Shown here piece by piece: positions 9,795 through 18,331 of a stretch of 20,704 nt of DNA. The position numbers and the translations under genes were made by a program. Position 1 is the stretch's first letter, and every line of letters begins with the position of its first letter. Location of the stretch: IMG/VR virus record IMGVR_UViG_2778261463_000014; one strand, given 5' to 3'. Under the pieces are notes generated by a model. The model had not been told where the DNA came from. It saw nothing but the letters and a program-made list of their open reading frames with translations, and did not search any database. The stretch is from a virus. Lineage: Duplodnaviria > Heunggongvirae > Uroviricota > Caudoviricetes.

Positions 9795-10010
9795 ATGTCA
9801 AATAAAATGACTGGTTTAGTAAAATGGTTTAACGCTGATAAAGGTTTCGGCTTTATTTCTCCTGTTGATGGTAGTAAAGATGTGTTTGTGCATTTTTCTG
9901 CGATTCAGAATGATAATTATCGAACCTTATTTGAAGGTCAAAAGGTTACCTTCTCTATAGAGAGTGGTGCTAAAGGTCCTGCAGCAGCAAATGTCATCAT
10001 TACTGATTAA
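9795..10010 (+). CDS. cspB: Cold-shock protein CspB
   Basis: 71-aa translation [51 protein letters not shown]... with RNP1/RNP2 motifs (KGFGFI, VFVHF). Confidence 0.95.
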
Positions 10011-10290
10011 AATTCATCGCTCGTCTGTATACGATAACGAAGAAGGCTGATGCCTGAGTAGAGATACGGACAGAGTAGTGAATATTGGATCTCTTTAATA
10101 AAAAGTAAGGAGGTCCAATACATGAAACAATGGCTAGCATATTTGGCAAAATCTTAATCAGGAAAAGTATGCTAACCATTGTGGTGAAGTGCAGGTTTGC
10201 TGCATGAATAGTTTTACAGCAGAAGCTAACTGCTGGCATGGCAAAACAAAGTGCGTAAGTGGATGACTCCCACAAAAAGCACCACAATCT

Positions 10291-10318
10291 CAAACCCGCT
10301 CAGGCGGGTTTTTTATTA
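10291..10318 (+). terminator. Intrinsic terminator (possibly bidirectional) between cspB and the zinc-ribbon gene
   Basis: CCCGC-TCAG-GCGGG followed by TTTTTTAT; A-rich on the 5' side. Confidence 0.6.
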
Positions 10319-10373
10319 TCTGCTTTAAATATATTATTAAAATATAAAAAATACTTGTTACTAATAAAATCAA

Positions 10374-10544
10374 TCAGGCTACAGCTTTAAGATTTGTCTG
10401 GAATACTTTGTTGCAATGAGGGCAGATCAAAAGGGCACCTTTTTGTACTCTTGAAAAACTGTGTTCTGACTCTTGGGTGCAGTTTGGGCAGGAACATTTA
10501 ACGAGATAATTACGGCGTGATTTTGAGTTTTTACGTTCTGACAT
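10374..10544 (-). CDS. ynfU: Small zinc-ribbon protein (YnfU-like), 56 aa from MSERKNSK
   Basis: CxCPxC...18 aa...CPxC motif (KCSCPNCTQES...ICPHCNK). The listed ORF (to 10595) probably over-extends the N-terminus. Confidence 0.6.
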   Translation of the reverse strand: MSERKNSKSRRNYLVKCSCPNCTQESEHSFSRVQKGALLICPHCNKVFQTNLKAVA

Positions 10545-12319: not shown

Positions 12320-12681
12320 GGTAATATTAAATCGGAACATTTACATCGCGGAATGTAAAATTTAAATAAAAAGGACTCTTCCATGAGCCAAAATTCCTGA
12401 AATCTTAAGGGTAAGATAAAAGGTCTTAATCAGAATGACACGTTTTATTAATAAATAAAGCTATTCTTTCATTGCTGTGTTTTTCTTTACAAAAGTAATC
12501 CTTGCTATGGGTGGTTAATCATGCGTTAATGGTGTTCTGGTTTGTTACAAATTTATCTGAAGCAGTCATTGTTATAATTTTATTATTTGTACCTCTTGAG
12601 ATTTCCTTGTTGGTTTTTCTCTCTGATATTTTTTTTCGGACCATTCTGCCCAAGGGCTAATTTCTTCAAAAGGTAATAATT

Positions 12682-12894
12682 ATGTCTAACAAAATGACTG
12701 GTTTAGTGAAATGGTTTAACCCTGAAAAAGGTTTTGGTTTCATCACGCCGAAAGATGGCAGCAAAGATGTGTTTGTCCATTTCTCAGCAATTCAGAGCAA
12801 CGATTTCAAAACATTAACTGAGAATCAGGAAGTTGAATTTGGTATTGAGAACGGACCTAAAGGTCCTGCCGCTGTTCATGTAGTGGCGCTTTGA
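12682..12894 (+). CDS. cspI: Cold-shock protein CspI
   Basis: 70-aa translation [53 protein letters not shown]...; preceded by a long AT-rich leader. Confidence 0.95.
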
Positions 12895-13093
12895 GGTAGA
12901 CAATATTACAAACCATATTCACTTTAGATGCCCGTGTTGTCATGGTTCCCAGTATAGAACATCATCTTTTGATGTTTCTGACATGAATCCTTTCGGGGCA
13001 AAATGTATCTTTTGTAAATCAATGATGATTACATTTGATAATATTTCACAATACTTAAATGCCAGCCGTCTGTCGTTGGATTTAAAAAAGTGA
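12884..13093 (+). other. Unlisted zinc-ribbon reading frame (YnfU-like architecture) with no ATG/GTG/TTG start, between the cspI stop and its terminator
   Basis: Hand translation of the frame: ...IHFRCPCCHGSQYRTSSFDVSDMNPFGAKCIFCKSMMITFDNISQYLNASRLSLDLKK, stop at 13091-13093. CxCC...CxxC spacing parallels ynfU. Possible pseudogene or non-canonical start. Confidence 0.3.
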
Positions 13094-13098
13094 AAATG

Positions 13099-13122
13099 AA
13101 GGCTCCTTCGGGAGCTTTTTTG
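13099..13122 (+). terminator. Intrinsic terminator after the cspI region
   Basis: GGCTCC-TTCG-GGAGC followed by TTTTTT. Confidence 0.6.
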
Positions 13123-13240
13123 CTTGGTGTCTATTCGATGGATACTCACATACTACGGTAACATCATGAAAAAAATCATAGTTTTTTTTAACTCTGAACC
13201 AGCAGTGGTAGTGCCAGCGATGACTGGAGTTAACACCATC

Positions 13241-13396
13241 ATGCGTGAATATCCAAATGGCGAAAAAACACACCTTACTGTAATGGCCGCAGGGTTTCCA
13301 TCTCTGACCGGAGATCATAAAGTCATTTATGTAGCCGCGGATCGACATGTTACTTCAGAAGAAATTCTGGAAGCAGCAATAAGGCTCTTGAGTTGA
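13241..13396 (+). CDS. ynfN: YnfN-like small protein (51 aa from MREYPNGEK); the reading frame is open upstream to an ATG at 13166 (76-aa form)
   Basis: The internal start at 13241 has GGAG 11 nt upstream and gives the 51-aa size I recall for YnfN; the longer frame begins MKKIIVFFNS. Start choice unresolved. Confidence 0.6.
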   Translation: MREYPNGEKTHLTVMAAGFPSLTGDHKVIYVAADRHVTSEEILEAAIRLLS

Positions 13397-17750: not shown

Positions 17751-18331
17751 TGGCATTCAGAATGAGTGAACAACCACGGACCATAAAAATTTATAATCTG
17801 CTGGCCGGAACTAATGAATTTATTGGTGAAGGTGATGCATATATTCCGCCTCATACAGGTCTGCCAGCAAACAGTACCGATATTGCACCGCCAGATATTC
17901 CGGCTGGCTTCGTGGCTGTTTTCAACAGTGATGAGTCATCGTGGCATCTTGTTGAAGACCATCGGGGTAAAACAGTTTATGACGTGGCATCAGGGGACGC
18001 GTTATTTATTTCTGAACTCGGCTCATTACCGGAAAATGTTACCTGGTTATCCCCGGAAGGGGAGTTTCAGAAGTGGAACGGCACAGCCTGGGTGAAGGAT
18101 ACGGAAGCAGAAAAACTGTTCCGGATCCGGGAGGTGGAAGAAACAAAAAACAGCCTGATGCAGGTAGCCAGTGAGCATATAGCGCCGCTTCAGGATGCTG
18201 TGGATCTGGAAATCGCAACGGAGGAAGAAACCTTGTTGCTGGAAGCCTGGAAAAAGTATCGGGTATTGCTGAACCGTGTTGATACGTCAACTGCACAGGA
18301 TATTGAATGGCCAGTAGCACCTATAGGGTAA
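17750..18331 (+). CDS. tfa: Tail fibre assembly protein (Tfa)
   Basis: 193 aa, follows the tail-fibre gene with an overlapping start (TAATG); size and position as lambda Tfa / TfaQ. Confidence 0.85.

Follow-up and report, generated by a model that had tools for sequence, protein, structure and literature searches.

The classical Escherichia coli genes with an AUU start codon are infC, which encodes IF3, and pcnB. In the case of infC, the weak AUU codon determines and controls how strongly the gene is expressed, and it mediates the autoregulation of IF3. Two small genes located behind cold shock genes, ymcF and ynfQ, reportedly belong to the same category. D'Lima et al. are said to have described YmcF and YnfQ in 2017 as cold-induced microproteins, and to have identified their non-canonical ATT starts by means of molecular genetics; the published product is reportedly a free protein of 62 aa.

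D'Lima et al. 2017 (PMID 28861998) is cited by others for AUU starts in bacteria, and PMC11228462 lists ynfQ as 'Qin prophage, cold shock induced', with a transcript that is co-induced with cspI and ynfN. It should be pointed out that the 'ynfQ' of VanOrsdel et al. 2018 (PMC6001520, Table 1) is a different ORF, of 37 aa, between ydfJ and ydfK, and that the name in present-day annotation refers to the gene between cspI and ynfR.

Here, we examine an open reading frame situated directly 3' of cspI in a stretch of viral DNA of 20,704 nucleotides (IMG/VR record IMGVR_UViG_2778261463_000014, called the window in the following), which corresponds to the late region of the E. coli Qin prophage. We will argue, with high confidence, that the frame is ynfQ, i.e. 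the Qin-prophage gene for a four-Cys, 62-aa YmcF-like protein that is co-transcribed with cspI and initiated at an AUU codon at position 12905, with a likely coupling to the translation of cspI. The gene is genuine and was described before, and it is neither a pseudogene nor a new find. Since ynfQ is present in RefSeq, in Pfam and in E. coli gene lists, the sighting of the frame is true without being a discovery.

Layout and identity of the reading frame

The features considered in this work are collected in Table 1. The frame is open on the plus strand from 12884, right behind a TAG at 12881-12883, to the TGA ending at 13093, which amounts to 69 codons. An earlier note, made from the sequence alone, had described two Cys pairs in this frame (of the CxxC type), no ATG, GTG or TTG ahead of an internal ATG, and a terminator after it. 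The sequence agrees on all of these points: the ORF list and the inspection of the locus both give the internal ATG (a 36-aa ORF) as the only canonical in-frame start, with none upstream, and the frame is followed by a GC hairpin and a T-run. The terminator scan listed this hairpin on the minus strand only. The earlier note had also called the frame unlisted, which is not correct, since RefSeq/PGAP lists a CDS of the ynfQ/ymcF family with an ATT start.

Table 1. Coordinates of the features of the window that are discussed in the text.
Feature	Position	Strand	Basis and remarks
cspB	9795-10010	+	Convergent with ynfU
ynfU, small zinc-binding protein next to cspB	10377-10544	-	Pfam PF23499, NCBIfam NF038384
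cspA-type cold-shock thermoregulator RNA (5' UTR and cspI coding region)	12536-12921	+	Rfam RF01766
cspI, cold shock protein gene	12682-12894	+	70-aa ORF; RefSeq cspI WP_000066495.1; stop TGA 12892-12894
Shine-Dalgarno GAGG, overlapping the cspI stop, 8 nt before ATT	12893-12896	+	Sequence; paralog alignment; csp-adjacent loci
ATT initiation codon of ynfQ	12905-12907	+	RefSeq CDS start; ATT/ATC/ATG at this codon in 80 species loci
ynfQ CDS, 62 aa, YmcF-like	12905-13093	+	RefSeq, Pfam PF23641, codon-position differences; stop TGA 13091-13093 included
First Cys knuckle C9-P-C11-C12, inside the invariant FRCPCCHGSQYR motif	12929-12940	+	Alignment columns invariant or near-invariant
Internal ATG (Met27), not the start	12983-12985	+	Lineage-specific substitution in alignments
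Second Cys knuckle C34-I-F-C37, inside the GAKCIFCK motif	13004-13015	+	Alignment columns invariant or near-invariant
ynfR, ORF of a 21-aa cold-induced small protein, overlapping the terminator hairpin	13096-13161	+	RefSeq; VanOrsdel et al. 2018 PMC6001520
Terminator-like hairpin AGGCTCC-TTCG-GGAGCTT and T-run	~13100-13121	+	Sequence; hairpin and T-run conserved in paralog alignment (after ymcF too)

A megablast search with positions 12600-13200 against complete E. coli genomes matched 2,148 records. The annotation beneath the match comprises, in the rows sampled, cspI, ynfQ/ymcF (under the name 'cold-shock protein' or 'cold shock small protein YmcF'), ynfR and ynfN, and ynfQ/ymcF is annotated in all 29 full-length rows sampled from these records. 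The RefSeq CDS of K-12, strain 300709 and strain D1 (WP_071524604.1 or WP_071526745.1) maps exactly to the ynfQ interval of Table 1, and the CDS of the window is identical to those of K-12 and 300709. ATT is the first CDS codon in four RefSeq records, namely those of ynfQ in K-12, 300709 and D1 and that of the paralog ymcF. The gene lists of E. coli now carry ynfQ as well, in the order ynfN, ynfR, ynfQ, rzpQ. At the protein level, the Pfam YmcF-like profile PF23641 covers YnfQ from end to end (residues 1-62 on profile positions 1-62), with 109.9 bits (the cut-off being 27) and an E-value of 6.9e-32.

The YmcF-like family and the paralog ymcF

The protein search yielded 131 homologs, all belonging to PF23641, most of which have 62 aa and carry the name cold-shock protein or YmcF. 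The genera represented are Escherichia, Citrobacter, Salmonella, Klebsiella, Raoultella, Kosakonia, Yokenella, Enterobacter, Leclercia, Kluyvera, Shimwellia and Dickeya, with identities down to 47-55% in Dickeya, Shimwellia and Kluyvera. Two blocks of the family alignments, FRCPCCHGSQYRTS and GAKCIFCK, show no or almost no variation, and the four cysteines form two CxxC pairs. The invariant columns include F7, C9, P10, C12, G14, S15, Q16, R18 and S20 in the first part of the protein, and G31, A32, K33, I35, F36, C37 and K38 in the second, while C11 and C34, with at least 90% conservation, are near-invariant.

The closest described relative in E. coli is YmcF, encoded behind cspG, which has 62 aa like YnfQ, is 66% identical to it and shares its Cys motifs. 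The two genes are organized in the same way, in that ymcF also has an ATT start, an SD overlapping the csp stop and the same kind of terminator on its 3' side. They differ in that ymcF is the chromosomal copy while ynfQ is the copy of the Qin lambdoid prophage, behind cspI. The module that follows is again of the same kind, with ymcE-gnsA after ymcF and ynfR-ynfN-gnsB after ynfQ. A tblastn search of YnfQ against the window gave the ynfQ locus as its sole match, i.e. no second YmcF-like remnant is seen behind cspB.

Free lambdoid phages carry the gene as well, with Tritos, 2H10 and mEp460 as examples. Of the nine phage records in which a YnfQ homolog is encoded, five have no annotation for it, namely those of Escherichia phages PhiR42_1, PhiR63_1, 2H10 and mEp460_ev081 and of Morganella phage IME1369_01. 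Gene callers may skip these homologs on account of the non-canonical start, and gene finders that are limited to ATG, GTG and TTG miss genes such as ynfQ. Sequence of the cspI-ynfQ or cspG-ymcF type is also found in contigs labelled as a Veillonella parvula MAG, a Mucilaginibacter MAG and a Chryseobacterium sp. It is identical or nearly identical to enterobacterial loci, and most likely represents contamination in binning or assembly.

Start codon and coding evidence

From 276 genome matches in a collection with one genome per species, 80 loci were kept. At the codon aligned to residue 1 of the YmcF-like protein, 60 of them have ATT, 4 have ATC and 16 have ATG. Since Klebsiella, Raoultella and others have their ATG at precisely this codon, the position of the start is fixed. 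About 7-8 nt before it there is a Shine-Dalgarno (SD) sequence, T(A/G)AGG, which is invariant in the paralog alignment and has the same position in the csp-adjacent loci. The ORF check gives 49 loci in which the stop codon of csp (TAA or TGA) overlaps this SD, about 9-10 nt before the start, and with a stricter tblastn test an intact csp is found directly upstream in 47 of the 80. The pairwise differences at codon positions 1, 2 and 3 are 0.177, 0.110 and 0.511, respectively, a pattern that shows purifying selection on the ynfQ frame.

A different route to the protein would be a +1 ribosomal frameshift at the end of cspI, by which YnfQ would, at least partly, be made as a CspI-YnfQ fusion. The sequence CUU UGA G at 12889-12895 resembles the CUU UGA C of prfB, the +1 frame at this point is the ynfQ frame, open from 12884, and Citrobacter sedlakii has a natural ORF in which csp and ymcF are fused in frame (see below). 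However, the motif lacks conservation, as the end of csp varies among the homologs (CTC TAA, CTT TAA, GTA TAA, CGC TAA, CGT TGA and others). The internal SD that lies 3 nt upstream of CUU in prfB is absent here, and the start codon becomes ATG in loci without csp. The CUU UGA G at the end of cspI is thus probably a coincidence, and a contribution from frameshifting appears very unlikely.

The internal ATG at 12983 has in its favor that it is the sole canonical in-frame start, and its use would lead to a product of 36 aa without the first Cys pair. The corresponding Met27 is, however, specific to the K-12-type allele, the residue being Arg, Lys, Gly or Gln in strain D1, in ymcF and in other genera. 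Moreover, no SD is present ahead of this ATG, and FRCPCCHGSQYRTS, the most conserved block of the family, is located upstream of it. We find it hard to believe that this codon serves as the start.

The earlier note had left the choice between a recent pseudogene and an unconventional initiation, of which the latter is supported, by the ATT with the GAGG in front of it. In the pseudogene scenario, a former zinc-ribbon gene would have lost its ATG and its translation would have ended, and the lack of ATG, GTG and TTG upstream of the first Cys pair is in line with this. Against it, ATT or ATC is found at the same codon in 64 of the 80 species loci, with the SD conserved, and the frame is intact and has a strong third-position bias. 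In addition, RefSeq annotates the frame as a CDS, and the literature has a cold-induced protein. The conserved start codon and SD, the codon-position differences and the lineage-specific nature of Met27 are the reasons why both this scenario and the internal start fail, and we assign almost no weight to the former.

The idea that the frame is non-coding 3' UTR of cspI, open merely by chance, finds some backing in its AT-rich composition, its position after a stop codon and ahead of a terminator and its lack of a canonical start, but it can be dismissed for all practical purposes, as a 69-codon frame is open with a chance of only ~0.005 at the local GC content of 34.7%, the Pfam match is full-length, and both the conservation across genera, down to the identities given above, and the strong codon-position bias speak against it.

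Start codon type and the upstream csp gene

We now compare the type of start codon with the presence of csp, for which a combined table of 85 loci (L005-L089) was used. Here, an intact csp was counted as adjacent when it is co-directional and ends 9-11 nt upstream. All of the 48 loci with an intact adjacent csp have ATT or ATC, and none has ATG. In the 37 loci where it is absent, ATT or ATC is found 17 times and ATG 20 times. A naive Fisher test gives p = 1e-9 for this association, a value that ignores kinship, the ATG starts representing roughly five lineages. The ATG-start loci, all of which have lost or lack an intact adjacent csp, are those of Klebsiella/Raoultella, of C. sedlakii, of Enterobacter/Leclercia/Silvania, of Kluyvera and of Shimwellia. 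Among the 17 ATT loci without an intact adjacent csp, 5 have a partial csp match, and 12 have no upstream csp, the latter belonging to Pseudescherichia, Atlantibacter and one Citrobacter.

The pattern fits a mechanism in which ribosomes re-initiate after csp. It could equally be the result of selection that keeps YmcF low relative to Csp when both are made from one mRNA. The stronger proposal, that an AUU or AUC start in the YmcF-like family works only via termination-reinitiation coupling to csp, is one that we consider possible but doubtful, and the 12 csp-less ATT loci demonstrate that coupling is not required everywhere. If the proposal is true, the start codon would be a means by which evolution can set a fixed ratio of Csp to YmcF output in the cold. 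To our knowledge, a link between AUU/AUC starts and csp coupling in this family has not been described before, and it offers a cheap hypothesis on how rare start codons persist.

Two groups of loci retain traces of csp next to an ATG-start ymcF. In Klebsiella/Raoultella (at least eight loci), a remnant of the 3' end of csp, CCTGCGGTAGTGAATGTTGTAGCA, is present ~40 nt before ymcF, which indicates that most of csp has been deleted. In Citrobacter sedlakii NBRC 105722 (positions 1294-1689 of locus L014), csp and ymcF form a single in-frame ORF. This csp is degenerate in its RNA-binding motifs, with KWFN changed to KEFN and VFVHFSA to VFVPSSA, which suggests that csp is decaying or that the fusion is Rosetta-stone-like; an error in the assembly is also conceivable.

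Proposed mode of expression

The results can be put together in the following scenario. The cspI and ynfQ genes would be transcribed together from a cold-shock promoter with a cspA-type 5' UTR thermosensor, and the transcript would mostly end at the hairpin at ~13100-13121. The Rfam cspA thermoregulator is matched at 112.8 bits (gathering score 78, E-value of 1.5e-28), and as the span of this match (Table 1) reaches across cspI into ynfQ, the latter should ride on the cold-stabilised cspI mRNA. The presence of this element is consistent with the cold induction of YnfQ.

In the next step, YnfQ would be initiated at the AUU at 12905, read as fMet and placed by the GAGG that overlaps the UGA of cspI. 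The distance from the cspI stop to the AUU is only 10 nt, and ribosomes finishing cspI are therefore the likely source of initiation, i.e. the two genes would be translationally coupled. The cspI ORF is heavily translated and would in this way feed ribosomes to the ynfQ start. Such coupling or re-initiation may be the reason why the AUU codon works. At the same time, the weak start would hold the output of YnfQ well below that of CspI.

Like infC and pcnB, ynfQ combines AUU initiation with a normal SD. Unlike in infC, the AUU is located 10 nt past the stop of a very highly translated ORF, and across species AUU starts go together with this arrangement.

Another option considered was a hairpin that sequesters the SD and the AUU and is opened by the ribosomes terminating on cspI. 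The K-12-type junction can indeed pair the SD and the AUU with codons 5-9 (-30 kcal/mol, z of -1.84). However, RNAalifold on 20 diverse csp-ymcF junctions finds no conserved structure (-1.77 kcal/mol), and this option was dropped.

Comparison with YnfU

The earlier note had likened the frame to YnfU, the small protein encoded next to cspB in the same window, and had proposed that each csp locus here is accompanied by a YnfU-like ORF. The first of these statements is not borne out, because the two proteins belong to different Pfam families (Table 1) and have no detectable relationship. BLASTP of YnfQ against YnfU gives zero alignments at E <= 100, and the HMM search of YnfQ gives no match to PF23499 or NF038384. 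In an hhalign comparison of a 32-sequence YmcF-like alignment with a 21-sequence YnfU alignment, the probability is 3.1%, over 8 columns that cover one CPxC knuckle only. Homology of YnfQ to YnfU is not supported by the BLASTP result, the Pfam and NCBIfam assignments or hhalign, and was rejected.

Both proteins have low scores on the NCBIfam model NF047912 (ECs_2282 family putative zinc-binding protein), with 17.8 bits and an E-value of 0.0023 for YnfQ and 13.1 bits for YnfU, below the cut-off of 37. These scores are due to generic CxxC similarity.

What the two proteins share is that YnfU is also small (56 aa), with two Cys knuckles ~20 residues apart, and that in several genera its gene lies near csp. 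They differ in that ynfU starts with a canonical ATG, is transcribed as a separate unit from the opposite strand, and is not coupled to a csp stop. The label 'YnfU-like' is thus a loose analogy only, referring to two Cys knuckles in a small protein. As for the statement about the csp loci, it is right to the extent that small four-Cys proteins of both families are often located beside csp, and unsupported as far as it implies homology between them.

Several observations concern this neighborhood. A YnfU gene is found less than ~500 nt from a gene with a cold shock domain (csp) in Klebsiella, Lelliottia and Shimwellia, as well as in the present window (9795-10544), and such a linkage is not seen in the Enterobacter or Franconibacter loci sampled. 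In Shimwellia blattae (positions 404-898 of locus L089), the YnfU and YmcF-like genes are adjacent and divergently oriented. The csp loci are in this sense linked to two unrelated families of four-Cys small proteins, YmcF-like and YnfU.

Predicted structure and function

An AlphaFold2 model of YnfQ was obtained on the basis of the family alignment. Its mean pLDDT is 76, and residues 11-40 average 85-91 per ten-residue block. The model has short strands beside both Cys knuckles, followed by a C-terminal helix. The family profile finds no solved relatives in the PDB at E < 0.05. In a Foldseek search of the model against the PDB, the top neighbors are all zinc ribbons, at non-significant scores (E-values of at least 0.57, TM-scores of at most 0.41). 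They include the N-terminal domain of MqsA, TFIIE-alpha and ribosomal eL43, in which two CxxC knuckles are carried on beta-hairpins.

At these scores, the structural support for a zinc-ribbon fold is weak. YnfQ is most likely a small metal-binding ribbon, and the four-Cys YmcF-like proteins probably bind zinc. In a 2026 review, YnfQ is modelled as rubredoxin-like with a metal site. On the basis of the fold class and the operon context, one may imagine a role of YnfQ in the cold that is associated with nucleic acids or with the ribosome.

Downstream region

The region following ynfQ deserves a few comments. The ynfR ORF begins 3 nt past the stop of ynfQ and runs straight through the hairpin, and its expression therefore needs read-through of the terminator. 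Further downstream, ynfN (13166-13396) is intact here and in strain 300709, whereas it is frameshifted in the K-12 record. This means that the region is not the K-12 allele, even though ynfQ itself is identical. Finally, a match to Rfam IS009 (RF02111) with 218 bits is present at 18093-18291 on the plus strand, unrelated to ynfQ.
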